From: a phage
Strand: one strand, 5' to 3'
Sequence record: PZ338878.1
DNA length: 64,000 bases
A program made the position numbers and the translations under genes. Below the pieces are notes generated by a model that was given only the letters and a program-made list of their open reading frames with translations, did not search any database and was not told the origin of the DNA. Shown one piece after another: positions 5,449 to 63,423 of this stretch (the stretch's first letter is position 1; each line of letters begins with the position of its first letter).

Positions 5449-6564
5449 TTACTCTGCTGGTTCCCAAGTACCTGGAATCATCTTACGTACACGTACCCCA
5501 ACAGGCTTGGTAGGAATACCTTCGTCTGAAAATTCTTCGTACTCAATTTCAACAAATTGACCAATAAGTGTCAAAGCATTTTCTTCTTTACGATAGTTAA
5601 TGGTTTCATCTGAATCCTTACGCATCAGGAATTCGACTACTTTACCATTTTCCATCTCGCCTGTCAATACCCCGTCACCATTTTTATCACGTTTTGCACT
5701 TACCACCTTAACTTCAAGCGTCTGCCGTGGTTTACGTTTAATAACATCATAAGAACGTTTATCAAACTCATAAACACCTTGTGCATTACGATAAACAACA
5801 CCTTCAGCTTTCTCACGCAGAGCTTTTGCATAGAATGCATCAAACTGCTCTTGGTTTTCAATGTACTCTGTATGTACTACACAAATAAGTTCATCTAAAC
5901 CTTTATCTTCAACAACTTCTTTTAGAGCAGCCAAAACTTCAACCCTCTTCTCAAATGGTACAGATGGCACAGGAACATCATATACATAGTATTTAAGAAG
6001 CGGAGTGTTAGCATTATGCTTTTTCCACGCACTATTAATTTGTTGAAGGCTAAGGACACCCAAACCAGCAAAAACTTCACCATCAAGAGGATGACCAACT
6101 ACTTCTTTAATGAAGGTTGGAATTTCTTTCCAGTGAGGTGGAAGTTTATATACCTCCCCAGCTTTAGATAAGCATTCACCTTGCATGTTAATCATTGAAC
6201 GTAGACCATTCAATTTATATTGTGCATAACCTGGGAACAAAACACGATCAGCATAATCTTTATAATCCTGACATTTCATGGGTGTGGAAGGAACATGGTT
6301 TTCAGCTTCCTCTTTTGTTTTGTAATACCCATTCTTAAGTTGCTTTGTCCATTTGGCAAGAGCTTCTATTTCAGCTTGTTCTTCTGCTGTTGTTTCATTT
6401 GAGCGACCAATATTTTTAGGTTCTGCCGTATAAGATTTGCTAGTAATCTTTCCACCTAATTGACCATGAGCAACAGTTACAACACTACCTTCGGTATAGA
6501 CTGACCACTGTTTAATTTTACCTGTAGAAGTTTTACCATACAATGTAGGATTAGTTTGTTTCAT
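5449..6564 (-). CDS. ATP-dependent DNA ligase
   Basis: Nucleotidyltransferase motifs KLNGLR (I), DGEV (III), EGVVYR (IV), DVIKRK (V). Start moved to ATG at 6564, which has a GGAGG RBS; the ORF-track start at 6612 lacks one. Confidence 0.6.
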   Translation of the reverse strand: MKQTNPTLYGKTSTGKIKQWSVYTEGSVVTVAHGQLGGKITSKSYTAEPKNIGRSNETTAEEQAEIEALAKWTKQLKNGYYKTKEEAENHVPSTPMKCQDYKDYADRVLFPGYAQYKLNGLRSMINMQGECLSKAGEVYKLPPHWKEIPTFIKEVVGHPLDGEVFAGLGVLSLQQINSAWKKHNANTPLLKYYVYDVPVPSVPFEKRVEVLAALKEVVEDKGLDELICVVHTEYIENQEQFDAFYAKALREKAEGVVYRNAQGVYEFDKRSYDVIKRKPRQTLEVKVVSAKRDKNGDGVLTGEMENGKVVEFLMRKDSDETINYRKEENALTLIGQFVEIEYEEFSDEGIPTKPVGVRVRKMIPGTWEPAE

Positions 6565-6754
6565 CTTTAACCTCCAGTTGCGAAAGAACCCATTTAGCCA
6601 TTTCAATTTCACCGTGTAGTCTGCCTAGTTCATAGGCATCATCAATATTACCACCAGTGTAATCATCCACCATAAAGTAAGGATCTTCGCTACTGTTAGG
6701 TGCGTTTGCAATTCTCGTTAATTCTTCAATAAATGTCATAGTTACCCTTACCAA
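6551..6754 (-). CDS. hypothetical protein (67 aa)
   Basis: ORF in co-directional block; stop overlaps ligase start. Confidence 0.4.
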   Translation of the reverse strand: MVRVTMTFIEELTRIANAPNSSEDPYFMVDDYTGGNIDDAYELGRLHGEIEMAKWVLSQLEVKDETN

Positions 6755-6972
6755 TTATATACAAGAGTTTGAATCTCTTCCATCAAGTCTTCAAGATCTG
6801 TATCAACGTATTCAGAAGATGTTGCCATAAAGTATGTAATCATTGTGAACCCTTCCGAAGAAAGGGCATCAAGGATATCATTAAACATATCTTCCATTTC
6901 AGTATTCTCACCAAATGAGAATAACATTTGTTGATCTTCGCTTACACCTTTAACATAGATAGCTGTACTCAT
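6748..6972 (-). CDS. hypothetical acidic protein (74 aa)
   Basis: ORF tightly packed with neighbours. Confidence 0.4.
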   Translation of the reverse strand: MSTAIYVKGVSEDQQMLFSFGENTEMEDMFNDILDALSSEGFTMITYFMATSSEYVDTDLEDLMEEIQTLVYNW

Positions 6973-6975
6973 ATA

Positions 6976-7296
6976 TTAATCCTTAAGACGTTCATTTAAA
7001 TCTGCAATAACATCACCTAAATCTTCACATTCCAGTGTTAACTCTGAAACTTGTCCACTCAAATAACAAACTTCTTCATTTAGATCTGAAATAATGTTTT
7101 CTAATGAATCTACTTGATCATCATATGAACGTTTTGTTTCTTCAAGTTCTTCTGTAAGATCATTAATCAGACGAAGCAAAGATAAGATATAGCCGTCTCC
7201 TGTCTCGTTCCTCCACTCACTTCCGTAGCGATAAATAATAATTTCACCATTATCGACTACTGTAAAATACTTACCTTCACCAGAATAAATTTCCAT
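6976..7296 (-). CDS. hypothetical coiled-coil protein (106 aa)
   Basis: ORF with charged heptad-like sequence. Confidence 0.4.
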   Translation of the reverse strand: MEIYSGEGKYFTVVDNGEIIIYRYGSEWRNETGDGYILSLLRLINDLTEELEETKRSYDDQVDSLENIISDLNEEVCYLSGQVSELTLECEDLGDVIADLNERLKD

Positions 7297-7305
7297 ACAC
7301 TCTCC

Positions 7306-7710
7306 TTATTGTAGCTTAAGTGAACTGCGAAGACGTTTCTCTTGCTGATCACGAATATGTTGTGGAACCTCATGAATTGAGTCGTTACCGTGCCTATTTT
7401 CAACAACTAAAGAGATAACTTGATAACCAAACTCTTCAGCAAGAGTAAAATAAGGTTTAAGTTCTTTCTCTGTGGTTGAAGTGTTAGAGACAATAATCTT
7501 TTTAATATCAGATGCCATAGCATCACGAACAATACTCTGACACCATGCGTGTGCTTTACCTACATTCTCTGGCTTCCAATCGTAAACACCACTTTCTGTG
7601 TAATGATATTGATCTGCCTCACAGATAGGCCAATAACCTTCAGAAATAATTTCTGCTACTGTAGATTTACCTGCACCTGAAACACCACGTAAAATGATAA
7701 GTTGTTTCAT
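7306..7710 (-). CDS. P-loop polynucleotide 5'-kinase-like protein
   Basis: N-terminus MKQLIILRGVSGAGKST resembles the T4 Pnk kinase domain start (Walker A); abuts the RNA-ligase-like gene. Confidence 0.5.
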   Translation of the reverse strand: MKQLIILRGVSGAGKSTVAEIISEGYWPICEADQYHYTESGVYDWKPENVGKAHAWCQSIVRDAMASDIKKIIVSNTSTTEKELKPYFTLAEEFGYQVISLVVENRHGNDSIHEVPQHIRDQQEKRLRSSLKLQ

Positions 7711-13052: not shown

Positions 13053-14786
13053 ATGAATATTTTTGCACCTTTTGCTACTGATTGGTACAAACCTGGTCAC
13101 AAGCAGATGTACAACCAAAATACAAAACTTATTTTCTCTAATTTAACTCCTCGTAATGATAAAAACTTTGCACACTATGCAGATCGTGAAGCACGTGGTG
13201 TGATTGTTTTAGGTATTCGTCGAGCAGTCACTGATGCTCTTGTAACTATGTGGGATAGCTTCTTTAAAATGTCTCGTAGTGCAGCAGTAAATAAATTTTA
13301 TCGTATGTCTAAAAATGCATTAGGTGCTTCTGCTCCTTCTGCTGAATGTTGGGGAGAATTGCACGATTTAGGTTATCTTCCGCTGGAAGTTCGATCTCTG
13401 CCAGAAGGTGTTTTGTGTCCTATTGGTGTTCCTGTGTTTACTGTGCATAATACTTTAGAAAAATTCTTTTGGTTAACTAACTATGTGGAAACACTACTGT
13501 CAGATGAAACTTGGAAGACAATGACTAATGCCACAGCAGCTTTTCAGTATAAGCGTATCGCTATGGCATATGCGATGGCAACGTGTGATAATATTGATCA
13601 CGTTAACTTCCAGTGTCATGATTTTAGCCTACGTGGTTTAAGTAATATCGAAGATGGTTATAAGAGTGGTATCGCTCACTTGGCATCGTTCACAGGAACA
13701 GATAATATTCTGGCTATTGAAACTGTGCATGACTATTATGGTATTGATTATGATCAGTTTGTTGCAGGTTCGATTCCGGCAACAGAACATTCAGTAGCAA
13801 CGACTAACATTGGAGCTATTGTTGAAGATCTGAAGAAACATTTCCCACATCTTAAAGATGATGTAGATGGGCTTCGTTATGTAGCAGAAAAAGAGTTTCT
13901 TCGTCGTTATATCGAAGAAATTGTTCCAGAAGGTTTTTGTTCATATGTAGCAGACTCTTATGACTATTGGGCTGTATTGACTCGCATTCTGGTAGAATTG
14001 AAAGATTCCATTATGTCACGAAATGGTCGTCTTGTTATTCGTCCAGATTCAGGAGATCCGGTTAAAGTTGTTGCAGGATACAATGTTGAATCTTTTGATA
14101 ACTATGAAGACCTCTTAAATAATGGTATTGCGACAGCCACTGAAGTAGTTCATTTGGCTGATGTTAATAAGTATTACAATGTTCTTCAGGATTGCAGTGT
14201 TGCTGACTGTATTGATGAAACTTATGAGATTCCTTATTGTGAAGCAGTAGGTTCTATTCAAATCCTTTGGGAAGTGTTTGGTGGTACTATCAACCGAAAA
14301 GGCTACAAGGTTCTTGATCAGCATATCGGTATGATTTATGGTGATTCTATTACTGTTGAACGAGAACACGAGATCTTACGCCGACTGAAGAAGAAAGGTT
14401 TTGCAGCTTCCAATATTGTATTTGGTGTTGGTAGTTATACTTATCAGTTCAATACACGAGATACTTTTGGTTTTGCTGTTAAAGCAACAGGTAGTATTAT
14501 CGGTGAACACGAAATTTTGGTAAGTAAGGAGCCTAAAACTGATCCTGGTAAACGCTCTGCAAAAGGTTTTATTAAGGTTGTTAAGGATACCAATGGTAAT
14601 CTGTCTCTTGTAGATAATCTTTCTTTTAAAGATATCCAGGATGAAGACAATGAGTTACAAGTTATCTTCAAGGATGGTAAGGTTATTACACCACAAGTAG
14701 AAGGCCGTGATGAAACATTCACTGATATCCGCAACCGTGTTGACGTAGAGGTTCTTCGTACTATGGGAACCATCCAGGTTGACTAA
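13053..14786 (+). CDS. nadV: nicotinamide phosphoribosyltransferase family protein; candidate nicotinamide ADP-ribose transferase (Namat) of a NARP1-type pathway
   Basis: 577 aa; NAMPT-like N-terminus (FATDWYKPGHKQMY); GGAG RBS. Confidence 0.75.
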   Translation: MNIFAPFATDWYKPGHKQMYNQNTKLIFSNLTPRNDKNFAHYADREARGVIVLGIRRAVTDALVTMWDSFFKMSRSAAVNKFYRMSKNALGASAPSAECWGELHDLGYLPLEVRSLPEGVLCPIGVPVFTVHNTLEKFFWLTNYVETLLSDETWKTMTNATAAFQYKRIAMAYAMATCDNIDHVNFQCHDFSLRGLSNIEDGYKSGIAHLASFTGTDNILAIETVHDYYGIDYDQFVAGSIPATEHSVATTNIGAIVEDLKKHFPHLKDDVDGLRYVAEKEFLRRYIEEIVPEGFCSYVADSYDYWAVLTRILVELKDSIMSRNGRLVIRPDSGDPVKVVAGYNVESFDNYEDLLNNGIATATEVVHLADVNKYYNVLQDCSVADCIDETYEIPYCEAVGSIQILWEVFGGTINRKGYKVLDQHIGMIYGDSITVEREHEILRRLKKKGFAASNIVFGVGSYTYQFNTRDTFGFAVKATGSIIGEHEILVSKEPKTDPGKRSAKGFIKVVKDTNGNLSLVDNLSFKDIQDEDNELQVIFKDGKVITPQVEGRDETFTDIRNRVDVEVLRTMGTIQVD

Positions 14787-41178: not shown

Positions 41179-43338
41179 ATGAAACAGGCTATTTTTACTG
41201 TAACTCGAAATACGAGAGTAAATGCCAGTTCATTCAGCTATAAGACCGTCGATGGAACGGCGGTCGCTGGTAGAGATTATGTAGCTAAACAGGGAACAGT
41301 AACGTTCCCTTCTGATGCAGATTCTGCTACTGTGGTGGTTGATGTATATGAACGTCCGGCAAACTCTTTAGATCTTTATTTTACTCTTGAGATTACTAGC
41401 ATAAGTCAAAATAACATGATGATCAATGAAGAAATTCGTTGTGTTATTACGACTAATCAATCGAATACAACCCCGCTAACTTGGCCTGTTGTGAAGTCTA
41501 GAATGTTTGATCCTAAGTTTTGGACAATAGATTCTCAAGCAACAGAAAGTTGTTCTATTATCTCTAATGGTGATTCTTTCACAGCAAGAATGGTTAATAG
41601 GACAGTGGCTGGTCTTGCTGGGATTATTTGGTCAACTTACGATAAATATGATCACAAAGGATTAGGCTACCAAGAACATTCTGACTTAAGTAAAGAGAAA
41701 CTTTGGTTTAAAATGGAACTTAGTCAAGGTGTTCCTGGATTAAAAGAAGAAAAATTAATACCATCCTTAACAGTGACACTGAAGGATGAAACAGTTCATT
41801 ATGTATCTCTAAACTTTTATGCAGAAGAAGTTTCAGAAGATGGTAAGACAGCAACAATCAAATTAGATTTCTCAAACTTAAAATCGGGGCCAGAAAATGA
41901 TATTGTTGTTGACACTACACAAATAGATAATATGTTCTTCTCCTTGATCTCAACGAGGTATCAAGAAATTGAAGATATTATTCCTGTAGACAATGAGGAT
42001 CTTTCCTTTAAGTTTACCATACTGGAGCCTGATACTGGTTACAGTATGATGAATATGGGTAATTTAAATGTTCCAGCACACACCATAAGAATGTGTACAT
42101 CTTATGATGATATGTATAACCTGACCCCAGAGCGAATTATTTCTAACACCTACAGATTAGGTTATAGGGATATGATTAACCACTATAATGGTATGTCACA
42201 CTATTATCAGTTTAGTTGGGATGCTGGTTCTAATAAATGGGCTTTGAATAGAACAGAATATTTAAACCCAGCAACAGAAGCATGGTTTGATAATTTCCAC
42301 GCTAATGCAAAAGCTATGGGCTACACAGTAATGAATTCCTTAAGTTTTGAACTTATGAGTACAGTGTGTCCTGTAGAATGGGTACAACATACTTGGAATG
42401 ATGATCTTGCTGCTACAGGTTATGAGCCACCAAGTTATGTTTTATCTCCTTCAATTGATGAAGGGATGAATTATTTACAAGGTGTAATAAATAAAATAGC
42501 TTCTATATCCGCTGCTAATGATCTTCCGGTTATTATTCAGGTTGGTGAACCGTGGTGGTGGTATAACACAGCTACCAATCTACCGTGTATTTATGATTAT
42601 ACAACCAAAGTTGCATTTAATAATGAAACTGGATTGTATGCACAAGATGTTGGTACAGTTAAAAATTATAAAACTGGTACACCATATAATGAATATTATG
42701 CATTCCTATCTAAAACATTAGGACTGCGTGTTGCTAAATTTGCAACAGATACCAGATTAGCATATCCTGGAGCTAAAGTTACATTGTTACCATTTGTGCC
42801 ATCCATTTTGGGTAATGGTATGATGGAGTTTGTTAACTTCCCTAAAGATTATTATATCCCAGAGAACTTTGACTTTTATTGTTCAGAATGTTATGACTGG
42901 TTGTTGGAAGGTAAGATGGAAAAATCTTTCGACGCTATCACAATACCTAATGAGCAACTAGGTTTTAGTTACGATAAGATACATTATCTTGCAGGGTTTG
43001 TTCCAGACGCAACTCTAGCACCATTATATGGCTTTGATCCTGAATCAGACTACAGAACATATTTGTGGAAAATGATTATAGGTAATATTGTATTGAATGA
43101 TCAGAAGTTTGTTGGTTTATATCAATACATATGGGCTTACCCACAAATAATGCATGATTCAATAACTGTTCTTAATTCAAAATCCCAAGTGTTTTATATG
43201 GGTAATGTGCCTTTGAATTGCTACTTGCAAGATATCACTCTTAAACAGGTAAATGTTGAGATTGCCACTATAAGTGGAATTACATTAGCCACTAAATCTG
43301 GAGAAGATTTAGTAACAACACAAAAATTTTATATATAG
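41179..43338 (+). CDS. tail-associated protein with N-terminal Calx-beta-like domain
   Basis: KTVDGTAVAGRDYVAKQGTVTFPSDADSATVVVDV resembles the Calx-beta motif. Confidence 0.4.
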   Translation: MKQAIFTVTRNTRVNASSFSYKTVDGTAVAGRDYVAKQGTVTFPSDADSATVVVDVYERPANSLDLYFTLEITSISQNNMMINEEIRCVITTNQSNTTPLTWPVVKSRMFDPKFWTIDSQATESCSIISNGDSFTARMVNRTVAGLAGIIWSTYDKYDHKGLGYQEHSDLSKEKLWFKMELSQGVPGLKEEKLIPSLTVTLKDETVHYVSLNFYAEEVSEDGKTATIKLDFSNLKSGPENDIVVDTTQIDNMFFSLISTRYQEIEDIIPVDNEDLSFKFTILEPDTGYSMMNMGNLNVPAHTIRMCTSYDDMYNLTPERIISNTYRLGYRDMINHYNGMSHYYQFSWDAGSNKWALNRTEYLNPATEAWFDNFHANAKAMGYTVMNSLSFELMSTVCPVEWVQHTWNDDLAATGYEPPSYVLSPSIDEGMNYLQGVINKIASISAANDLPVIIQVGEPWWWYNTATNLPCIYDYTTKVAFNNETGLYAQDVGTVKNYKTGTPYNEYYAFLSKTLGLRVAKFATDTRLAYPGAKVTLLPFVPSILGNGMMEFVNFPKDYYIPENFDFYCSECYDWLLEGKMEKSFDAITIPNEQLGFSYDKIHYLAGFVPDATLAPLYGFDPESDYRTYLWKMIIGNIVLNDQKFVGLYQYIWAYPQIMHDSITVLNSKSQVFYMGNVPLNCYLQDITLKQVNVEIATISGITLATKSGEDLVTTQKFYI

Positions 43339-49874: not shown

Positions 49875-50216
49875 ATGGAGCTAACAGAAGTATGGGATAT
49901 CGCTAAAGAGGCGATTATCCCTCTTATTGGTGTAATCTGGGTGGTCTTCAAACAGAAGATAGATGATATAGCAAGTGATTTGGATAAAATGGAAGACAAA
50001 TACCGTGAACTAGAAAAGAAGTTGGTGTTTGTTGAATCCACTTATGCTACCAAAGCAGAACTTGCTCAAATGCTTAACCAGATCAACTCTACATTAATGG
50101 CAAATAATACTGCCTTAGAACAGAAGATTGAAAAAATAATGGATTTAAAAAATGCTCCTGTTCAATTAATGCTAGAGGAGATTACGAAGCGCACACAAAG
50201 TAAGGACAAAAATTAA
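49875..50216 (+). CDS. hypothetical protein with N-terminal hydrophobic segment and coiled coil
   Basis: IIPLIGVIWVVF then heptad-like charged sequence. Confidence 0.35.
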   Translation: MELTEVWDIAKEAIIPLIGVIWVVFKQKIDDIASDLDKMEDKYRELEKKLVFVESTYATKAELAQMLNQINSTLMANNTALEQKIEKIMDLKNAPVQLMLEEITKRTQSKDKN

Positions 50217-52630
50217 TGGCGAATTTTCCAACATATCCTGCTACGACACTAGAACAAGGTGTTGATCTGGTTATATTCTCGTCTAACCAGATGCATGATG
50301 TTATTAACGGGGATGCTACAGCAACTGTAGAAACCGAAACAGGTTTAATACCTACACTGCGTAAAGCACTTGTTGATAACTTCTTCTTTAAGAGTCCTGT
50401 TGCTTGGTCAGCAGGATCAACTGAAACTGTATTTAACCAGTTACGTTATTTTGAAAACGGTATCTTGAGTGGGTACTACTATGCTCCATCTGCCACTACT
50501 GCGAACCCTGTACCTATGCAGGGTACACCTGTAGGAGACAGTAACTGGACTCTGTATGCTCTTAAAACTGAACAGTTAGCTTCAGATGTGTATCCTTGGT
50601 ATTTTAAAGGTGCTACAGGGTATGAGACAGAAATCAGTCCTCCTTATATCTTTGATAATGCTATTGTCACCATTAACGGTGTAATTCAGATTCAGGGTGA
50701 AGCATTTACTATCAAAGATAGTAAAATTATTCTGGCAGAACCATTAGGTTTAGATCCGTCTACTGGTCTACCTAACAAATTGTTTGCTTTTATTGGTAAA
50801 ACAACAGCCTCTACTTCTTACGTAGAGAAAAACCTTTTGTCATCTACCACTGGTGCAGCAATGGTTGGTCTTCCATCTGGAGGCAATCTGTTACAAGCTC
50901 AATACTTTGTAACGCCTGAGCAGTTTGGTGCAATTGGTGATGGAGTTACCGATGATACTCAAGCAATTCTAAAAACCATTACTTTCGCTAACACGAATAA
51001 CATTCAAGTACGTGCAGATAAGAATTATAGATTCACAAGCTCAATTGCTATGTCTGGTATTCGTTGGTATGGTGGTACATTCACTGGTAACGGTGGAACA
51101 ATGATTTCTACTGTGTCCTGTTGGATTGAAAACGTTCGCTTTGAAAAATGTTATGTTAAGATGTTAGGTGGTGATTGCCGATTCTATCGTAATATCTTCT
51201 CCAACGCAACATCTACAGCAGCATTTTTAATGCAAGCAATGACAAGTGAAGGTACGTTGGACTTCAGTTACAACGAAATGTATGGTTGTAAATATGCGAT
51301 CCTGCAACAAGGTACTGGAGAAGTAATGACCTATGGGCGTTACTCTAACAACTACATTCACGATATCAAAGGTGATGCTATTGAACTTAACGTAGTTCAA
51401 AAACACTACACTGAAGGTTTGATCATCGAGAATAACCACATTGCTAACGTAGATGCTTCTGGACAAGGGGCAAACTGGGGTATTGGTATTGGTGTAGCAG
51501 GTAGTGGCCCATATGGTGTTGATGCTCCTGATTCACAATATGTACGTAACTTCAGTATCGTTGGAAATAGGGTTTACAATTGCCGTCAATGTTTACACGT
51601 TGAAATGGGTAAAAACTTCACTATACGTGACAACGAAGTTTATCCTAACACAGCAGTTTCAACAGGTACAGGTTTAACTACTTGTGGTGTTGCATTATAC
51701 GGATGCCAAGATTTTGAAGTTGATGGTTTAACTGGTTATCTGCTTAATGATCCGTCTGTTTCAACACGCATGGTCTTTATTGACTGGGGTGTTAACAGTG
51801 GAAGATATGCGGGGCCACCAATTAACTTTACAATTAAGAATTTGGATATTCCAGAATCTTCAATTGAAATTGCAACGGCTGGATCAGATGCCTGGGAAAA
51901 CTCTACAATTGTTAGTAACATCAATTGTAATGTTTTTAAATGGCGTGGATTACCATCTAGCTCTACCTTTAATAATATTCGTTGCCGTAGTATTGACTTT
52001 ATTGGTCAACACGGAAGCGGAGAAGGAAGTGGTGGCGGTTTCTATACTCGCAGCCAATTCACTTATATGAAGTGGGTAGGATGTACAGCACTTAGCGGAG
52101 ATGAAACAACAGTTTCTTTTGCTAAAATCTACACGGATCGTTGCGATCAGGTTGGAAATAACTTTGGTGTTCCAACTGCTGTTGATGGTACAGGTCATCG
52201 TGGGCCAGTCTTAACCACTATTTCTGAACAATATTTTACAGATTATGATGAATTCCCAGGTGGGCGTGACTTCCCTACTGGAACAGTTATTCATTGTGCA
52301 AGCGGTAAAAAACACGTTGTTACAGTAGGTGGTGCTTTCTTTAGTAATAATGAGAAAATAAAAGCAACTGTTACAGGTCAAACCTATCTACAGTCTAATG
52401 CTTTAAACTGGGCTAGTAATGGCTACGCTAAAGCGGCAGGTACTAAGATTGTTATTCCAGGTGCAGGAGCAAATGGTGGCGATCTTGTGACAACTATAGC
52501 ACGTGCTACGTATGTGACAAATAGTTTGTACACAATAGATATTGCAGATCCAATTGTAACACCTACAGCAGAGAATACACAAATTAAAGCTCTGAACCCT
52601 GTTACTTTTGTTACTGTCAATAATGCTTAA
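50216..52630 (+). CDS. second tailspike with pectate-lyase-like beta-helix domain (candidate depolymerase)
   Basis: QFGAIGDGVTDDTQAIL signature; shares a 35-nt identical DNA stretch with gene 43347. Confidence 0.55.
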   Translation: MANFPTYPATTLEQGVDLVIFSSNQMHDVINGDATATVETETGLIPTLRKALVDNFFFKSPVAWSAGSTETVFNQLRYFENGILSGYYYAPSATTANPVPMQGTPVGDSNWTLYALKTEQLASDVYPWYFKGATGYETEISPPYIFDNAIVTINGVIQIQGEAFTIKDSKIILAEPLGLDPSTGLPNKLFAFIGKTTASTSYVEKNLLSSTTGAAMVGLPSGGNLLQAQYFVTPEQFGAIGDGVTDDTQAILKTITFANTNNIQVRADKNYRFTSSIAMSGIRWYGGTFTGNGGTMISTVSCWIENVRFEKCYVKMLGGDCRFYRNIFSNATSTAAFLMQAMTSEGTLDFSYNEMYGCKYAILQQGTGEVMTYGRYSNNYIHDIKGDAIELNVVQKHYTEGLIIENNHIANVDASGQGANWGIGIGVAGSGPYGVDAPDSQYVRNFSIVGNRVYNCRQCLHVEMGKNFTIRDNEVYPNTAVSTGTGLTTCGVALYGCQDFEVDGLTGYLLNDPSVSTRMVFIDWGVNSGRYAGPPINFTIKNLDIPESSIEIATAGSDAWENSTIVSNINCNVFKWRGLPSSSTFNNIRCRSIDFIGQHGSGEGSGGGFYTRSQFTYMKWVGCTALSGDETTVSFAKIYTDRCDQVGNNFGVPTAVDGTGHRGPVLTTISEQYFTDYDEFPGGRDFPTGTVIHCASGKKHVVTVGGAFFSNNEKIKATVTGQTYLQSNALNWASNGYAKAAGTKIVIPGAGANGGDLVTTIARATYVTNSLYTIDIADPIVTPTAENTQIKALNPVTFVTVNNA

Positions 52631-52670: not shown

Positions 52671-54632
52671 GTGATTTTAACACGTCCAAATAGTGCCATT
52701 GCAGACATGGTAGAGTCTCGCTATAGAAAGCGTAGAAGTTTTGCAAGTGGTTTTACCTTAAGAGATGCTCGTGAAGCATTGCTCTTTGAAGCTGACGGTA
52801 ACTACTATCAGTGGAAAGGTTCTCTACCTAAAGTTGTACCTGCTAACTCTACTCCTACATCTACTGGAGGGATTTCAGATACAGCTTGGAAAAATGTGGG
52901 TAATGCAGATGACATTGCTCAAATAGAATCAGAATTAGATGCTATTGAAGCTGAAATTGAAGATCTTAGAGAATCCATCCCAGAAGCTGGTAAATCAGCT
53001 TACCAGATTGCCGTAGACAATGGTTTCCAAGGTACTGAGACACAGTGGTTGGCTTCTTTAAAAGGTGATCCAGGTGCTCCATTAAAGCTATTAGGGACAC
53101 TATCTAATACCAACCAATTACCTACAAGTGGAAACAATGCAGGGGATGCATGGATTGTAGGCGAGAATATGTATGCTTGGGATGGTACTGCTTGGAGAAA
53201 AGTAAACTCACAGGGGCCAGAAGGTAAATCTGCTTATGAAGTATGGCTTGCAGCAGGAAATGAAGGTACAGAACTAGATTATCTTGCTTCAATTAAAGGT
53301 GATAAAGGGGAGCCTGGCCCAGAGGGGCCACAAGGTGTGCCAGGTAATAATGCTAATGGTTTTGATTACCAAGGCGCAGCTAATTCCGTTTCAGATCTTC
53401 CTTCTGCATCTCATGGAAACACATCTCAAGCATGGAGTGTTGGTACATATCTATACGTGTCAAACGGTGTAGAATGGATCAATATGGGTGCTATAGTGGG
53501 GCCAAAAGGAGATAAAGGCGACAAAGGTGATAAGGGTAACACTGGTGATTCAGCTTATCAAGTCTGGTTAAATGCTGGTAACGTTGGTACTATTGACGAA
53601 TATATTGCCTCTCTGAAAGGAGAAAAAGGTGATAAGGGAGACAAGGGTGATCAAGGTGCACAGGGTATACAAGGCTTGACGGGGCCAACTGGTGCAGGGT
53701 TGACCATTATTGACATTCTGACTAACACTTCTGAACTACCACAAACTGGAGAAGAGGGTGATGGTTATCTGATCAATAATGAACTTTGGGTCTGGTTGCA
53801 AGGAGCCACAGAGTGGACAAATGTTGGTCGTTTAGCTGGTACTCCAATCACTGCAAAAGGACACGTTGCGTCTGCAAGTGCACTTCCTCCTACAGCTAAT
53901 TACGGTGATGCTTATCTGACGGAAGATACAGGTCATCTTTACATTTACACCTATGATGAACAAACTCAAACTGCTGAATATGTAGATATGGGTAGTTTGA
54001 AAGGTGATAAGGGTGAAAAAGGTGACGCTGGTACTAACGGTACAGACGGTGCAACTTGGATTGTTAAAACAACAGATCCAATCTCTAGTGATGGTAAACA
54101 AGGTGATTATGCCTTTAATATCTCCACGGGCGAGGTGTTCTTAAAAACATCTGCAACTGTCTGGACTTCTCAAGGTACACTACCTAGTATCACAGATGCA
54201 CCTAGTGACGGTAAGACTTATGCTCGTAAAGATGGGGCATGGGAAGAACTCACTAATTCTGTAGATGGTCAAGATATAGTTCCAACAAAAGTAACAACTA
54301 ATTTTATAGAGGTTACAGCATATACCAACAATTCTGTTACAGGGGACTGGACACCTCCAGGAACACATAACATGAATGTGTTGAATCTTACTGGTAACGC
54401 TACTATAAAAGCATGGCCTGGTGTCGAAGATAGTACAAAACCTAAACCATTCTCTGCAATAGTTTATCTTATCCAAGATGCCACTGGAGGTCGTACTGTT
54501 ACTTTAGATCCATCTTACAAAGTAATTGGTTCCAGTGATATTAATACAGATCCTAACGGAGTAACAATACTACAACTAACATATTGTGGTGTTGGCGATT
54601 ACGTGGATGCTATTGTTGCTAAACGCACATAA
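52671..54632 (+). CDS. tail fibre with collagen-like Gly-X-Y tracts and phage-tail-repeat motifs
   Basis: GDKGEPGPEGPQGVPG, GPKGDKGDKGDKGNTGD, GEKGDKGDKGDQGAQGIQGLTGPTGAG; three SAYQ..W...G..GT...Y.AS.KG repeats; GTG start. Confidence 0.55.
   Translation: MILTRPNSAIADMVESRYRKRRSFASGFTLRDAREALLFEADGNYYQWKGSLPKVVPANSTPTSTGGISDTAWKNVGNADDIAQIESELDAIEAEIEDLRESIPEAGKSAYQIAVDNGFQGTETQWLASLKGDPGAPLKLLGTLSNTNQLPTSGNNAGDAWIVGENMYAWDGTAWRKVNSQGPEGKSAYEVWLAAGNEGTELDYLASIKGDKGEPGPEGPQGVPGNNANGFDYQGAANSVSDLPSASHGNTSQAWSVGTYLYVSNGVEWINMGAIVGPKGDKGDKGDKGNTGDSAYQVWLNAGNVGTIDEYIASLKGEKGDKGDKGDQGAQGIQGLTGPTGAGLTIIDILTNTSELPQTGEEGDGYLINNELWVWLQGATEWTNVGRLAGTPITAKGHVASASALPPTANYGDAYLTEDTGHLYIYTYDEQTQTAEYVDMGSLKGDKGEKGDAGTNGTDGATWIVKTTDPISSDGKQGDYAFNISTGEVFLKTSATVWTSQGTLPSITDAPSDGKTYARKDGAWEELTNSVDGQDIVPTKVTTNFIEVTAYTNNSVTGDWTPPGTHNMNVLNLTGNATIKAWPGVEDSTKPKPFSAIVYLIQDATGGRTVTLDPSYKVIGSSDINTDPNGVTILQLTYCGVGDYVDAIVAKRT
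52989..53696 (+). repeat. intragenic repeats (three roughly 30-aa units plus collagen-like triplets)
   Basis: Repeat units at aa 107-136, 185-214 and 291-320 of gene 52671; Gly-X-Y runs at aa 209-226, 277-293, 316-342. Confidence 0.5.
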
Positions 54633-54635
54633 TCA

Positions 54636-54660
54636 AAGCCCCTTCGGGGGCTTATTATTT
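54636..54660 (+). terminator. hairpin terminator
   Basis: AAGCCCC-TTCG-GGGGCTT then ATTATTT. Confidence 0.45.
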
Positions 54661-54671
54661 AAGGAGATTAA

Positions 54672-57491
54672 ATGTATCCTATTCCTTTATTTATGTCAAC
54701 AACATCAGCTTCAGTAGTAACAGCTACATCTATAACCACTTCCTCTATTGGTATTGCAATAGTTGGTAGTAAAAAGCAACTGACATACACAGTTTCACCG
54801 GAAGATGGTGCGTTATTTGATATAGCTTTTTCATCTTCAGATAATACCAAAATGGTTATAGATAATAATGGTATGATGGAGTTTGTTGCCGAAGGTGGTT
54901 TTGATGCAATAATGACAGCTAAAAATAATTTAGGTGCTGTCTTAACTGATCAATCTGGTGGCTATGCTTCAGAATTAAGTGTGTACACTGAAAGTCTGTC
55001 TGCTATGGATGCAGGAACTACTCAACAATTGGTTGCTACAATCAGTCCAGAAGGTGCTAAAGACCTTCCAGACATGGTAATTACGTACACCACAACAGAT
55101 CCAGAAGTAGCTACTGTAAGTCCTACAGGATTAATAACTGCTCTTAAAGATGGCAGTTGCCGTATAGGTTGCACTGCAACTTATCAAGGAACAGTGGTGG
55201 CCTCTGATAGTTCTTATTTAGGTGTTAATGCTGTTCCTGTTATTTCTAATGTAACAGCCGTGGCAAACAGCTATGGAGACATTCGTGTTGCTTGGGATGT
55301 AGCTGATCCGCTAGATGGTGATACTTATACTGTAGAAGTATTAGATTTAAGTAATAACAGTGTCCAGTGGACTACAACAACCACGAATACTTACGCTTAC
55401 TTTGATATCTCTGACTCTATTCCTCTTTATGGGTTTGCTCCAACATACCTTAAAATTAGCGTTAAGAGCACCAAAGCAGCACCCGTTATCTTTAATAACT
55501 CAATAGCTACAGATGATTCATTCATTAAAGAAGTTATTGTCTTTGCTGGACAAGATAACGTAAATGCACACTTTACAGAACTATCTGGTGCAAATAAAGC
55601 AGCAATGAGTAGCACAACAGCCCGTAATGCATATGCTACGCAACGTGGTTTAGCAAATGCTGAAGTTCTCCCGTTAAATACAGCTTCTGGATCATCAGCA
55701 GCAGATAAATATGCTGACGATAAAGCTGGAACAGGTACACCAGACAACTACTGGTATGATCTGGATAACACAGCAGATGGGCCATGCTTAACTAACTTTA
55801 TCACTAAAGTCACACCTTATGCAAGTAAGGTTAAAGCGATTATTTGGGGACAAGGTGAAAATGATGCTGTATCAGCATCTTCAACTGTTGCAGGTAGATA
55901 CAGTAACACTACACGTTACCATGATGCTACGATAGCTATCTTTGATAAGATGCGTACAATAGTTCCTGCTTCTCAAGCAAAAATTGTTTGGCAGATCCTA
56001 GGACGTTCTTATTTATATGGTGTAGAAGTTAATGGTGTGGATTGGCAGAAATACAGAAATGTACAAAGAACCATCTCTACAGCACGTGACGATGTTATCA
56101 TTGGTTCTTGGGTGGATGGTGCTGAACGCTACAGTGGTTATGTTTATGAAGAAGGTATTGCTGGTCGTATCCATTATATTTCTTCTGTATACCAAACAGC
56201 AGCTACAAAACTTGCTAAATCAGCAGCAGACGGTACAGACCTAACATCAACGTCACCTGTTTGGGTTGATATGGCTGTTCCAACTGGAGCAACAGCTATT
56301 TCCCAATCTAATCAAGATATAATTTTAGCATGGGATGCTCAAGGTTATAGTAAACACTACTTCCGTAATATTAACGTCTTAACAGCATCTGTATTAACTG
56401 AACAAACCCTTAATACGAACAGTTATACGTTTACCTATGCAGATCAAGTAGAACAATATGGTTTTGCAGCAGGTACTACGGTATTTGATGTTGCATATTA
56501 TGACGAAGCAAATGATGTGTTATCTCCTTTAGTACGTTTTAATGTTAGCGTTACAGCAGGAAAAGTAGAAGATAAACCTGTCGTGATGGATTATGATTTG
56601 ACACAAGAAACTCTTCCATCAGATGTTAAGGTTAATGGTGGGAACTCTTTTGCTCGTGCTTCTGGAGATAAACTTGTAGCCACTAACACCTTGGTTGCTC
56701 CGTTGGAGTATGTTGGTACTACCCCTGTAGGTAGACGTGTAACAGCTAACACAGCTACACAAATTTTTGTCAACAACGCCTTAACAAGCGCAAGCCCGTG
56801 GGTAAAGACCAACTTAACTGTTGCAGCTTCATCTGATAACTCTCCGGCTGGAACTACTGCTAATGTATTCAAATTAACTCCGACTACAACCTCTGGTAGT
56901 CATATCTTAACTGCAACATATACTAACGCGTACAACATATCTGCCGGACGTAACTGGTCTGCCTCTGTTTTCTTGAAAGCGAACGGGATTACTAAGGCCA
57001 AACTAAGATTAAAAGCAGGAACTGAAGTTAATGAGGGTACTTTTGATTTAGCAGCAGGTACATTCGCAGGAAGTGAAGCTAATATTATATCTATGGGCAA
57101 CGGTTGGTATCGTGCTATTCTGCATAAAACAGGGATAGCCAAACAGTCCTCCATAAGTTTTGAAATAATTGCCTTGGATGCAACTGGTGCGGAGATTTTC
57201 GCTGGAGATGGTACTAGTAACCTTGCAGTTTGGTTGCCACAGCTTGAAGGTGCTTCTACAGGAGACACATCAAAAGCTGGATCGCCTTATGTCTGCACAT
57301 ATCCTGGAAATTTAGGAGGAGTATCCTTCACTATACCAAGGAACGGACATACTGGTGTGGATGTTTACTATTCCAACGGAGACGTTGTTCGTGACGTATT
57401 CTCTGGTACGGCATCTACTTGGACAATAAACTACTCCAGCTTGTACGATTGGGGATCAGTCTTTATTACAGGTTTGAAATATTACGACTAA
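54672..57491 (+). CDS. tail protein with Ig-like segments and a SASA/SGNH-type carbohydrate esterase-like domain
   Basis: VIVFAGQDNVNAHF (GQxN block) and IWGQGENDA (QGExD block) resemble sialate O-acetylesterase motifs, with Asp in place of the usual Ser. Confidence 0.45.
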   Translation: MYPIPLFMSTTSASVVTATSITTSSIGIAIVGSKKQLTYTVSPEDGALFDIAFSSSDNTKMVIDNNGMMEFVAEGGFDAIMTAKNNLGAVLTDQSGGYASELSVYTESLSAMDAGTTQQLVATISPEGAKDLPDMVITYTTTDPEVATVSPTGLITALKDGSCRIGCTATYQGTVVASDSSYLGVNAVPVISNVTAVANSYGDIRVAWDVADPLDGDTYTVEVLDLSNNSVQWTTTTTNTYAYFDISDSIPLYGFAPTYLKISVKSTKAAPVIFNNSIATDDSFIKEVIVFAGQDNVNAHFTELSGANKAAMSSTTARNAYATQRGLANAEVLPLNTASGSSAADKYADDKAGTGTPDNYWYDLDNTADGPCLTNFITKVTPYASKVKAIIWGQGENDAVSASSTVAGRYSNTTRYHDATIAIFDKMRTIVPASQAKIVWQILGRSYLYGVEVNGVDWQKYRNVQRTISTARDDVIIGSWVDGAERYSGYVYEEGIAGRIHYISSVYQTAATKLAKSAADGTDLTSTSPVWVDMAVPTGATAISQSNQDIILAWDAQGYSKHYFRNINVLTASVLTEQTLNTNSYTFTYADQVEQYGFAAGTTVFDVAYYDEANDVLSPLVRFNVSVTAGKVEDKPVVMDYDLTQETLPSDVKVNGGNSFARASGDKLVATNTLVAPLEYVGTTPVGRRVTANTATQIFVNNALTSASPWVKTNLTVAASSDNSPAGTTANVFKLTPTTTSGSHILTATYTNAYNISAGRNWSASVFLKANGITKAKLRLKAGTEVNEGTFDLAAGTFAGSEANIISMGNGWYRAILHKTGIAKQSSISFEIIALDATGAEIFAGDGTSNLAVWLPQLEGASTGDTSKAGSPYVCTYPGNLGGVSFTIPRNGHTGVDVYYSNGDVVRDVFSGTASTWTINYSSLYDWGSVFITGLKYYD

Positions 57492-57492
57492 T

Positions 57493-57523
57493 AAAAAAGG
57501 AGCCATTAGGCTCCTTTTCTTTT
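57493..57523. terminator. bidirectional hairpin terminator between convergent genes
   Basis: AAAAGGAGCC-ATTA-GGCTCCTTTT with A/T runs on both sides. Confidence 0.55.
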
Positions 57524-60843: not shown

Positions 60844-63423
60844 CTAGTGACAACTGGCCCATGAGTTACCAACATCGTAACCAGCAGTGAGAGGTACATT
60901 AAGATTGTAATACTCACCAGCTTTATTAACAGCGATAGATGCTAATTCTCCAGCACGACTGTAGGCTGTAAACCAACCACCTTTCGGAGATTCATGTACG
61001 TTAGCCCAAATCTTGCCAGTACGTTTCTCTTCTTCTTCTTTCCAGGCGTTAACTTTATCCAAACATTCTTTATCAATTTTCTTTTGTTCTTCTGGATCAT
61101 CAACTTGAGTCCAACCTAAAGATTCTTTAGAGAACCATTTAAAATGCACTAGATCACGAGTTACTTCAAGCTGTGCTTCATCGTGATATGCAATCATTTG
61201 TTGAACGAATGACTTATTTTTCCAGTCATCAACAAAAAAGTCAACAGCTAATCCTTCTTCTTCGATAAGATCATCGTAGATAACCATTGCTCTTTTTGCA
61301 CAAATAACACCACCACTCTGGAACAGAGAGTTAAGTATTGCGTGTGCAGATCGTGTAGGTACTTTCCTACCATCAATACCAAGAATGTATTTCTTACCTG
61401 TTTTAACCCAAAAATCATGCAGACGTTCTTTAAGAAGCGCAAGAGGCTTTGCAGCTTCCCAGAAAGCATCGTATACAAGCTGTCCTGTATACATATCACT
61501 ACCAATAGTTTTTGCTACTTTTGCAGCTTGAGCACCATAGGTAATACCATATTTAACAGATTTAGCAGGGCTTCGTTCAAACTTACGACCAATAGTATCA
61601 GAAATACGTCGAGCCATCATTGTATGAACATCATTAGGTTTTTCCAACAATAGAGCGTTACAATATTCGTGTGGCTCCTGCTCGTACCGCCAACAGTAGT
61701 GTGATTCTATTTTTGCTTCAAGAGAATCGAAGTCATAACCAATCTGGAAGTATTTTGGAACTTCTACACCAAATAAGTTACGCATTTCATATCCGTACAG
61801 AGATGTTACACGTGGAATGTTTGCTACTAATCTATGTTTCATACGAGACGTAGCTGCATCACACGTTGCAGCAGGAGTTGGTATACGACCATCAGCCCTT
61901 ACTGCCGCCAGATAACCTTTATCGTAATCCTCTTCATCTTCTTCCCAATCAGCACCACCACCTAGAATAGAGTTTCTACGATGTTTATACGTAAGATACT
62001 GCACAATCTGCGTAGCATAAGGAAACTTTTCACCCAGTGCTTCCAAGTTAGGACAAATATCTTTCTCTTGCCCTTTTGTAAAGGAAGGGTTAGTAAGCAC
62101 TTTAACACCACGACCTTTAGCTTTAGCAATACGATCTCTTAGTTTCCATTCCAAAGTTTCTGGTGTGCACTCCAGATGATCACATCTATCCTGGCAGAAG
62201 TTAGATGCTAATGTTTGATCAACATAGTCACGAATAGCCTTCTCCATTTGTGCTTCATCTTTCTTAATCTTAGTGCCAGATTTAAGAGTGATATCTTTAT
62301 CTTTATATTCAGATGGACTCCAACCTAAACCAACTAACCAATTTTTAATATGTGTAGTGTCGTCTAAAGTAGCAGGTACTGTAGGATCACAAATAGGTTC
62401 TTCTGCTGGAATAGGTAGTTTAAACTCTTTACCTAATGCAAATAACCACCAACCATCTTCTTTTTGTACAAGTTCACCAGAATGTTTCTCTGCAAACTTT
62501 AGCATGTTACTTGAAGGTTCACCATTCTTTTTAAACTGTAGTTTAGGTGGAATGAATGATTTCAAATAACCTTTAGTAGCAGGTTTAGGAGGTAGCACAG
62601 GTTCTGCCTCTAAACGACATGCTTCCATTCGAGCATCCAGATCACGAATATTATCCTCTGCTTGTTTCATATTGAAAGCAAAGCCACGGTGCTCTTGACG
62701 TGTAATAATATCAGCTACACGTTGTTCTAAGTTAAATGGTTCAGACCACTTATTATAATCACCCCACTCTTCCATCAAATAACGGAACACTGCGGTGTTA
62801 GCTTTGTTATCGTAAATACAGTAATACAGCATATCTGCTGCAAATGTTCTAAATCTTTCAGTTTCAGGGATGTTTTTTCTAAAATCAATTTTAACATCCC
62901 CTCCAGCTTTCTTAGATAACTCTGCCAGACTATGACCACCGAAGCGATCAGGGTTTAGTGTCTTACTTAAGATCATAGTATCACAAATTTCAATGTTACT
63001 ATTACCCCAAGTATTGTACTTAATACTGTAGTTGAGTTTAAAAAATAATTTAATTGCCAGTAAGTCGAAGTTAATGATGTTGTGTCCAACTACTTTGGTA
63101 ATTTTATAGTTTGAATTACCTTTAAATTTACCTGTTCCATTTACAAAATCAGGAAAATCTTTAAGAGGGAAATGGGTATATTCTAAATGCTCATATTCCT
63201 CCAGTCGGTATTCATACTTTCCGTCAGTCTCAATATACGGACGACCATCGAAAAGATATTTATCACCATCATGGAAAGCAATAATCTCTCCAGTATCATG
63301 ACTTTCACACACAATACAGTGCATTGCAAAACTATCTTTTAAACGATATGGACTTGCCAAGTAATCTACACTTTCGTCATTAAGCAAGTTGTTACTTTCA
63401 ATGTCGAAAGTAAAAGCTCCCAT
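60844..63423 (-). CDS. DNA polymerase, family A, with 3'-5' proofreading exonuclease domain
   Basis: FDIESNN (Exo I); DFDSLEAKI (motif A-like); KSVKYGITYG (motif B); YHDEAQLEV (motif C); AAGGAGGGAGA RBS. Confidence 0.75.
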   Translation of the reverse strand: MGAFTFDIESNNLLNDESVDYLASPYRLKDSFAMHCIVCESHDTGEIIAFHDGDKYLFDGRPYIETDGKYEYRLEEYEHLEYTHFPLKDFPDFVNGTGKFKGNSNYKITKVVGHNIINFDLLAIKLFFKLNYSIKYNTWGNSNIEICDTMILSKTLNPDRFGGHSLAELSKKAGGDVKIDFRKNIPETERFRTFAADMLYYCIYDNKANTAVFRYLMEEWGDYNKWSEPFNLEQRVADIITRQEHRGFAFNMKQAEDNIRDLDARMEACRLEAEPVLPPKPATKGYLKSFIPPKLQFKKNGEPSSNMLKFAEKHSGELVQKEDGWWLFALGKEFKLPIPAEEPICDPTVPATLDDTTHIKNWLVGLGWSPSEYKDKDITLKSGTKIKKDEAQMEKAIRDYVDQTLASNFCQDRCDHLECTPETLEWKLRDRIAKAKGRGVKVLTNPSFTKGQEKDICPNLEALGEKFPYATQIVQYLTYKHRRNSILGGGADWEEDEEDYDKGYLAAVRADGRIPTPAATCDAATSRMKHRLVANIPRVTSLYGYEMRNLFGVEVPKYFQIGYDFDSLEAKIESHYCWRYEQEPHEYCNALLLEKPNDVHTMMARRISDTIGRKFERSPAKSVKYGITYGAQAAKVAKTIGSDMYTGQLVYDAFWEAAKPLALLKERLHDFWVKTGKKYILGIDGRKVPTRSAHAILNSLFQSGGVICAKRAMVIYDDLIEEEGLAVDFFVDDWKNKSFVQQMIAYHDEAQLEVTRDLVHFKWFSKESLGWTQVDDPEEQKKIDKECLDKVNAWKEEEEKRTGKIWANVHESPKGGWFTAYSRAGELASIAVNKAGEYYNLNVPLTAGYDVGNSWASCH

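Follow-up and report, generated by a model that had tools for sequence, protein, structure and literature searches.

The phage DNA analysed here, a window of 64,000 nucleotides (sequence record PZ338878.1), contains at 54672..57491 a gene for a 939-amino-acid fibre protein. This protein carries a domain of the SASA/SGNH esterase type in which the expected catalytic Ser is an Asp, whereas the remaining motifs of the esterase pocket are retained. Comparison with relatives points to an ancient replacement. On balance we lean towards a pseudo-esterase, i.e. a domain which lost the Ser, kept its pocket and may bind a glycan of the host surface or position the fibre on it.

Motifs and fold of the esterase-like domain

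An earlier note on this DNA, made from the letters alone, had pointed to a GQDN and a QGEND block and had likened them to the motifs of sialate O-acetylesterase-type hydrolases. Both blocks are present in the 939-residue protein (residues 293-296 and 394-398), and the likeness is beyond chance. The window sequence by itself remained below the threshold of Pfam SASA (PF03629): the whole protein scored E 0.035 and 14.2 bits, the domain alone E 0.005 and 16.8 bits vs a gathering cutoff of 24.8 bits. Residues 275-535 served as the query for HMMER, run exhaustively against 1.84 billion representatives, and 77 relatives were found. A word-indexed search with the isolated domain had given only two fragments; the full-length query and the exhaustive search were used instead. 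SASA was matched individually by 23 of 34 aligned relatives at E<=0.01 (best E 1e-13), and in the SASA structure 1zmb the stretches 'GQSNMAG' and 'WHQGESD' were aligned with the GQSN and QGExD columns of the family profile.

A single-sequence search of the PDB sequences returned only an Ig-like match (6n1a). The family profile matched gp65 of phage N4 at E 1e-78 in two copies, residues 429-604 and 719-989, and more weakly the SASA structures 1zmb, 2apj and NanS. By tblastn, N4-like gp65 genes were found at 30-31% identity (E 3e-5). An AlphaFold2 (AF2) model of residues 270-545, built on the family alignment, had a predicted local distance difference test score (pLDDT) of 94.6 and a predicted template-modelling score (pTM) of 0.91. 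Searched with Foldseek, it retrieved N4 gp65 first (template-modelling score 0.77, E ~1e-13), 1zmb next and then many SGNH, GDSL and CE2 esterases, the CE2 structures 2wao and 2w9x among them. Thus, SASA enzymes are among the closest solved folds. Because of the model, the Foldseek ranking and the profile matches the domain is predicted to have the SGNH fold of the SASA type, a flavodoxin-like three-layer alpha/beta/alpha arrangement. Structure prediction had been named in the earlier note as a check; its outcome was a confident SGNH fold and not a fold unrelated to SGNH/SASA.

The SASA family is defined by a Gln beside the catalytic Ser, which is held in an 'inverted' oxyanion hole by block III, (H)QGE (PMC9487903). 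Both features are present, as Gln294 and as Gln394-Gly395-Glu396 in 'WGQGEND' (the equivalences of active-site residues given here are from sequence and profile alignment). Q394, G395, E396 and D398 are kept; the same positions are conserved in 15-17 of 17 Ser-bearing relatives. The Asn of QGEND is variable among relatives and, by the above definition, not an oxyanion residue in the SASA family. The general-base His of block V is retained as well: His501 in 'GRIHY' aligns with the His in '(I/V)HY' of the relatives. An Asp at His-3 is absent, as it is in NanS and in the dyad enzymes of CE2 (PMC9487903). At position 295 the codon GAT (55554-55556) encodes Asp in place of the catalytic Ser.

History of the Asp

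The earlier note was also correct in regarding this Asp as a substitute for Ser. We grouped the relatives into lineages, i.e. clusters at 50% identity; block I was aligned in 62 of them. In 51 lineages the nucleophile column held Ser, mostly as GQSN. The 11 lineages without Ser had Asp (two) or Ala, Met, Glu, Leu, Thr, Gln or Val. The block V His tended to accompany the Ser: 29 lineages had both, 6 neither, and 1 and 2 were mixed (Fisher p 7e-5). Such co-retention argues for the signature of a Ser-His catalytic pair which normally would be dismantled after loss of the Ser. Only two lineages without Ser keep the block V His; the phi92-like clade, which includes the window protein, is one of them.

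Asp was present in all close orthologues inspected, several independent phage isolates as well as metagenomic clusters. A sequencing or assembly artefact was rejected because of this and because at least two base changes separate GAT from any Ser codon. The sole other lineage with Asp is the Av-05 group (Avunavirus, Vequintavirinae), where block I reads GGDN. In a simple neighbour-joining tree the phi92-like (GQDN) and Av-05-like (GGDN) clades were sisters, and they have the domain architecture and the gene position in common. Therefore, the change from Ser to Asp appears to have a single origin, before both clades diverged to ~47% identity. Besides the Ser, three highly conserved residues were changed in both Asp clades: Cys replaced Arg372, Gln or Lys replaced His508, and Asp351 was changed as well.

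How much of the pocket survived was counted over 26 positions whose conservation among 17 Ser-bearing relatives reaches 90% or more; for the relatives themselves the count was leave-one-out. The window protein keeps 25 of the 26, the sole miss being the Ser. Most Ser-bearing relatives keep 25-26, and an Ala variant (P0120, GQAN) likewise retains 25. The Av-05 clade keeps 20-21. Its losses comprise Gln294 (to Gly), the block II residue Gly340, Gln394 (to Leu) and, in two of three representatives, His501 (to Gln). These four residues should be dispensable for the fold, as this sister clade shares the Asp and yet lost them. They were kept in the phi92-like clade nevertheless, which suggests continued use of the pocket. 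Further, Asp occurs without the His in two of the three Av-05 representatives; accordingly, the Asp is independent of a His partner.

Compared with the gene of phage JohannJBalmer, the ratio of non-synonymous to synonymous substitution rates (dN/dS) was 0.08-0.13 over residues 1-640; the value for the domain itself (residues 281-530) was 0.08, on 11 synonymous and 3 non-synonymous differences. This points to purifying selection: the nucleophile was lost, but the domain does not appear to be decaying.

The other domains of the protein

We regard the protein as a fibre or adhesin of a phi92-like myovirus, built of modules and probably a monomer. In the predicted order two Big_2 domains are followed by a small beta domain (A), the SASA-type SGNH domain, a second small beta domain (B) and an exchangeable lectin-like or carbohydrate-binding module (CBM)-like tip (Table 1). 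The Big_2 region is a conserved stalk or attachment part. Its synonymous divergence (dS) to JohannJBalmer was 0.10, and related phage contigs of 140-155 kb combine the same N-terminus (53-73% identity) with different C-terminal domains, RCC1 repeats. The small beta domains are paralogues; in pairwise BLASTP domain A matched residues 530-638 with 34% identity (E 1e-5). The SASA-like domain may have been inserted into a tandem repeat, or a duplication may have occurred around it, giving the beta/SASA-like/beta cassette. The match to phrog_15324, 'tail sheath and receptor binding protein', of the N4 gp65 type, spans the C-terminal half of the SASA-like domain and domain B.

In the tip, residues 694-863 matched the 'phage head spike fiber domain' of NCBIfam (NF048003; E 1e-18, 68.4 bits vs a cutoff of 36). 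Homologues of the tip are proteins of ~400 amino acids which either bear this name or, in some cases, PF13385 Laminin_G_3. The core of the AF2 model of the tip had a pLDDT above 90. Foldseek retrieved tail fibres of the Pseudomonas phages Pa193 and E217, then CBM22, CBM61, CBM29 and lectins. Residues 641-939 (56592..57488) differed from JohannJBalmer with a dS >1.4, compared with <0.1 for residues 1-640, and in one Justusliebigvirus subgroup megablast covered only nucleotides 1-2544 of the gene. This divergence indicates that the C-terminal tip probably is a module swapped between otherwise near-identical phages.

Natural variants

Dozens of independent isolates and metagenomic contigs carry the intact 939-residue reading frame, with 97-100% identity. 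In phi92 (FR775895.2, 91200-93500) the gene is decayed and annotated as gp152 and gp153: a deletion of 226 nucleotides (residues ~198-272) takes out small beta domain A, a second frameshift is located near residue 335, and residues 629-939 are deleted. The type phage of the genus is thus a natural null mutant for this gene. The paper on phage BME3 lists a 939-residue 'tail fiber' as common to the genus except phi92 (PMC12210895). A search of the literature on phi92 gp152 and gp153 found none, and a 2026 cryo-EM study of phi92 does not mention them; the decay of the gene explains why the protein is absent from the fibre candidates of that study (PMC13450770). In phage ALITA (PP359570.1) codon 720 is changed from TCA to TAA at 14158-14160, corresponding to 56829-56831 of the window, and the gene is split into two annotated coding sequences. 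A third variant is encoded at 6001-7491 of a Logan contig (SRR30535871). This protein of 496 amino acids consists of Big_2 domains and the same lectin tip (81% identity) and is devoid of the beta/SASA-like/beta cassette; in this related phage it occupies the syntenic final position of the fibre module.

What the domain may do

The earlier note had offered two possibilities, a variant catalytic arrangement or a non-catalytic, esterase-derived binding module. Comparison with relatives speaks for the latter, and variant catalysis is less likely. A pseudo-esterase is the explanation to which we give somewhat better than even chances. The domain would descend from glycan O-acetylesterases of phage tails, in the module family of N4 gp65, with the nucleophilic Ser turned into Asp. 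The substrate pocket would be kept, with the oxyanion Gln294 held by Q394-G395-E396, Gly340 of block II and His501. Without the Ser an acyl-enzyme intermediate would no longer be formed, and the host glycan would be bound instead of deacetylated. In this way a receptor-modifying module would have become a receptor-holding module which adds avidity to the lectin-like tip. A non-catalytic use is likelier than catalysis by Asp because in the sister clade Asp persists without the His and because P0120, with an Ala, has kept its pocket to the same extent. In this family a pocket thus can persist where no nucleophile is possible. A lectin-like tip which is exchanged is as expected of a receptor-binding fibre, and together with the Ig-like stalk it would suit an accessory adhesin. 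Concerning the ligand, phi92-like phages and N4 depend on the pathway of the NGR glycan, which is based on ManNAc (PMC8669472; PMC11984140), and homologues of O-acetyltransferases occur in the nfrA-nfrB-wecB gene cluster of Achromobacter (PMC8669472). By analogy, an acetylated polymer of the NGR type would be a reasonable candidate.

Several points speak against a pseudo-esterase with a pocket in use. We infer the loss of activity solely from the missing Ser, and to keep every other residue of the catalytic motifs is also what is expected of a working Asp-based active site. The Av-05 clade evolved faster overall (30.5% vs 39% mean identity to the Ser-bearing relatives). Its motif losses may result from a general relaxation and then would be uninformative on the ancestral state. 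The dN/dS of the domain rests on few differences, as given above. Finally, whatever the SASA-like domain does is not essential, since the 496-residue version lacks the cassette and since the gene is broken in phi92 and ALITA.

The last point would equally suit a mere spacer, which we consider rather unlikely, yet the most serious alternative. Here, the SGNH-like domain would be a rigid inert block which sets fibre length or geometry, and the motif residues would be kept for folding. The non-contractile sheath of N4 gp65 is built of such domains and its copy 2 is devoid of all motifs (PMC13434306). Moreover, a version of Big_2 plus lectin tip without the cassette exists at the same locus, phi92 and ALITA dispense with the gene in culture, and Ser is missing in 11 of the 62 lineages. 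What argues against a spacer is the sister clade: it folds without Gln294, Gly340, Gln394 and often without His501, whereas the phi92-like clade kept all of them, and 25 of 26 positions, over the same time.

Catalysis by a variant active site is improbable. Asp295 together with His501 and the intact SASA oxyanion hole would act with a carboxylate nucleophile, or as a general base which activates water. This would be an SGNH-fold hydrolase without Ser, possibly with a substituent other than O-acetyl as a substrate. Such a natural switch of the nucleophile from Ser to Asp is known in the alpha/beta-hydrolase fold from haloalkane dehalogenases and epoxide hydrolases. The retention of all other motif residues, the conservation of the Asp since before the split of clades which now are ~47% identical, and the His, kept in only one further lineage without Ser, are compatible with it. 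Against it, the sister clade has the Asp and lost the oxyanion Gln, the Gln of QGE, the Gly of block II and mostly the His. Since it keeps the Asp and loses the apparatus, the Asp is not tied to the catalytic apparatus. In addition, Arg372, His508 and Asp351 were changed along with the Ser in both clades, and P0120 retains its pocket just as well with an Ala. An acyl-anhydride intermediate on an ester substrate would be chemically unfavourable. An SGNH enzyme with an Asp nucleophile was not found in a review of the SGNH family (PMC9487903). A decaying relic with the Asp as the first disabling mutation, on the way to loss of the domain or of the whole gene, was rejected as highly improbable: the fragmented and truncated gene of phi92 and the premature stop in ALITA would agree with it, but the reading frame is intact in dozens of independent isolates and contigs, dN/dS is low over residues 1-640, and the Asp predates the Av-05 split, yet 25 of 26 conserved positions survive.

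Relation to N4 gp65 and to other known systems

N4 gp65 is an NfrA-binding, non-contractile tail sheath protein (PMC13434306; PDB 9lc0, 9yf4, 9yf5). With its two degenerate copies of the domain it may serve, by analogy, as a precedent for a binding role. Copy 1 keeps the Ser (GESQ) and copy 2 has lost all motifs, whereas in the window protein only the Ser is replaced. The architecture differs as well. In gp65 and in the Ser-bearing relatives a single polypeptide carries NCTSP_N, a TIM barrel and the SASA-like domain; in the window protein the SASA-like domain is located between Ig-like domains and a lectin tip. NCTSP_N, TIM barrel and SASA-like domain were seen in a single chain in relatives P0119, P0120, P0122, P0126 and P0038. 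The nearest Ser-bearing relatives are large tail proteins, sometimes with a baseplate anchor (DUF2612 or Mu Gp48) ahead. A Pfam search detected neither NCTSP_N (PF23844) nor TIM-barrel_NCTSP (PF23845) in the 939-residue protein. These modules reside in a separate reading frame, that of the 719-residue fibre protein at 41179..43338. Thus, in the window myovirus the module set of gp65 is split over two genes 11 kb apart. The 719-residue protein appears to be the one annotated with 'glycosidase and deacetylase domains' in the BASEL record. The 'glycan deacetylase tailspike' which according to the BASEL papers is shared with N4 is this NCTSP TIM-barrel protein; an assignment to the 939-residue protein was rejected.

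A side observation concerns N4 itself. Copy 1 of gp65 (residues 429-604; 'GESQ', block III 'GQGDQD'; PDB 9lc0 chain I) ends at position 181 of the 276 profile positions. Residues 17-77 of N4 gp64 (9lc0 chain M) match profile positions 189-250, including a block V-like 'iHF'. In the gp64-gp65 heterodimer, gp64 may thus supply in trans the part which copy 1 lacks; the result would be a split, possibly still Ser- and His-bearing esterase-like domain.

SASA/CE6 enzymes (PF03629; 1zmb, 2apj, E. coli NanS 3pt5) use a Ser nucleophile; the window protein has Asp, matches the Pfam family below threshold and carries the domain embedded in a virion fibre. Esterases on phage tail fibres, mentioned in the earlier note, have real precedents in the O-antigen deacetylase G7C gp63.1 and in SGNH receptor-binding proteins (PMC11654681; PMC13123978). 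The tailspikes G7C gp63.1 (PDB 4qnl), Moo19 gp82 and B2 gp49 and the SGNH receptor-binding proteins of Klebsiella prophages are active on p-nitrophenyl acetate and possess the Ser. They belong to the GDSL-type branch, whereas the window domain belongs to the SASA branch and is without Ser. The features of the G7C gp63.1 type, a catalytically competent SGNH domain in a trimeric tailspike, were not found in the 939-residue protein.

A further close system is the tail protein Av05_00106 of Av-05 (YP_009111180.1), an orthologue with 41-43% identity over 67% of the length and 47% in the esterase-like domain. It shares the order Ig-like/beta/SASA-like/beta, the final position in the fibre module and the Asp (GGDN). 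It differs in that it has 647 amino acids, no lectin tip and has lost pocket motif residues. A precedent for an SGNH-fold esterase pocket as a carbohydrate-binding site is CtCE2: the active site of this CE2 esterase doubles as a non-catalytic cellulose-binding site (Montanier et al., 2009; PMC2661963). Different from the window protein, CtCE2 is a bacterial plant-cell-wall enzyme with a catalytic Ser and not a virion protein.

The gene and its neighbourhood

The reading frame starts with ATG and is without internal stops. Counterparts in Justusliebigvirus coliphages (phi92-like, Stephanstirmvirinae) are 97-99% identical; the nearest is that of phage SD2 (99.1%). In GenBank they are called 'tail protein', 'lateral tail fiber protein' or 'putative tail component'. 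Two records, ALITA and vB-Eco-KMB37, have 'tail carbohydrate esterase', an annotation which reflects the esterase-like nature and not the change from Ser to Asp. PHROG tail families match the protein at E=0. The gene is the final one of the tail-fibre module, and replication genes follow downstream in convergent orientation. A location on the tail rather than elsewhere on the virion we infer from the gene position and the fold matches. Virion proteomics for the protein were not found; the proteomics paper on rV5 covers no orthologue.

Table 1. Positions of the 939-residue protein, its domains and motifs, and neighbouring features in the window.
Feature	Position	Strand	Basis or remark
Whole gene, 939-residue modular fibre/adhesin protein	54672..57491	+	Reading frame list, translation, homology, synteny
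N-terminal region, two Big_2 Ig-like domains (residues ~20-190)	54729..55241	+	Pfam Big_2 E 7e-14, two stretches
Small beta domain A (residues ~191-275)	55242..55496	+	Paralogue of domain B
SASA/SGNH-like domain, Asp at nucleophile position (residues ~283-528)	55518..56255	+	
Block I GQDN (residues 293-296)	55548..55559	+	Gln294 is the SASA oxyanion residue
Block III QGEND (residues 394-398)	55851..55865	+	Contains the SASA-defining QGE motif
His501 in 'GRIHY', block V general-base His	56172..56174	+	Retained
Small beta domain B (residues ~533-632)	56268..56567	+	Paralogue of domain A
Lectin/CBM-like beta-sandwich, exchangeable distal tip (residues ~694-865)	56751..57266	+	NF048003, AF2, Foldseek
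719-residue fibre protein, Calx-beta + NCTSP_N + TIM-barrel_NCTSP	41179..43338	+	PF23845 E 2e-81, PF23844 E 5e-21
Homologue of phi92 colanidase gp150	50216..52630		Synteny; upstream of the 939-residue gene
Homologue of phi92 gp151	52671..54632		Synteny; directly before the 939-residue gene
Terminator-like hairpin, 10-bp stem then T run	57495..57518	+	Consensus scan only

The hairpin behind the gene begins 4 nucleotides past the stop codon, between the convergent genes, and in two related records, Paula and PATM, a terminator is annotated under the match. A second terminator-like hairpin is located at 54636..54653, between the stop of the gp151 homologue and the start of the 939-residue gene; it suggests a partly independent expression of the latter. 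A promoter scan around the gene gave nothing above the shuffled expectation.

Two observations were made in passing. Four GenBank records labelled 'Campylobacter phage' (MG065639, MG065656, MG065689 and MG065645; A150, C3, A110a and A145) contain the gene at ~99% amino acid identity; three of these Campylobacter jejuni phage-labelled records have genomes of ~146 kb. Probably these are mislabelled or contaminant Justusliebigvirus genomes. Further, the DNA polymerase gene of PaulScherrer (18661-21975) is annotated with an intein; the polymerase reading frame of the window (60844..63423, minus strand, 859 amino acids) has the same length as the intein-less gene of ALITA.

Significance

Esterase domains on phage receptor-binding proteins, the structure of N4 gp65 and the automated esterase annotation are already known. 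In the accessible literature, the ancient replacement of the nucleophile by Asp, the finding that it is the sole residue changed in the phi92-like clade and the recurrent loss of the nucleophile in the family appear to be new. SGNH/SASA esterase domains on receptor-binding proteins are common tools of phages for modifying host capsules and O-antigens. As the window protein illustrates, a name given from the fold, such as 'tail carbohydrate esterase', can promise more function than there is: its nucleophile is gone, as in about one of six lineages of this family of tail proteins. The phi92-like clade amounts to a clean experiment of nature, in which the Ser alone was replaced and the pocket was long preserved, whereas the pocket of the sister clade decayed.

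It is a long shot that Asp295, His501 and the oxyanion hole constitute a working active site, retooled by a phage for some substituent of a host glycan which is not a simple O-acetyl ester. If so, this would be the first SGNH-fold hydrolase with a carboxylate for the Ser, in parallel to the switch in alpha/beta-hydrolases. In a milder version, the protein would be a natural 'virolectin', a receptor-destroying esterase which, through a change of one residue, became a lectin that holds its receptor, an acetylated glycan, e.g. a polymer of the NGR type. Should the pocket have kept its affinity for an acetylated or related glycan, this would illustrate how an enzyme that modifies receptors turns into a module that binds them, and it could supply a ready-made glycan probe. 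For the Justusliebigvirus phages, which are candidates for phage therapy, the result clarifies one component of their multi-fibre apparatus.

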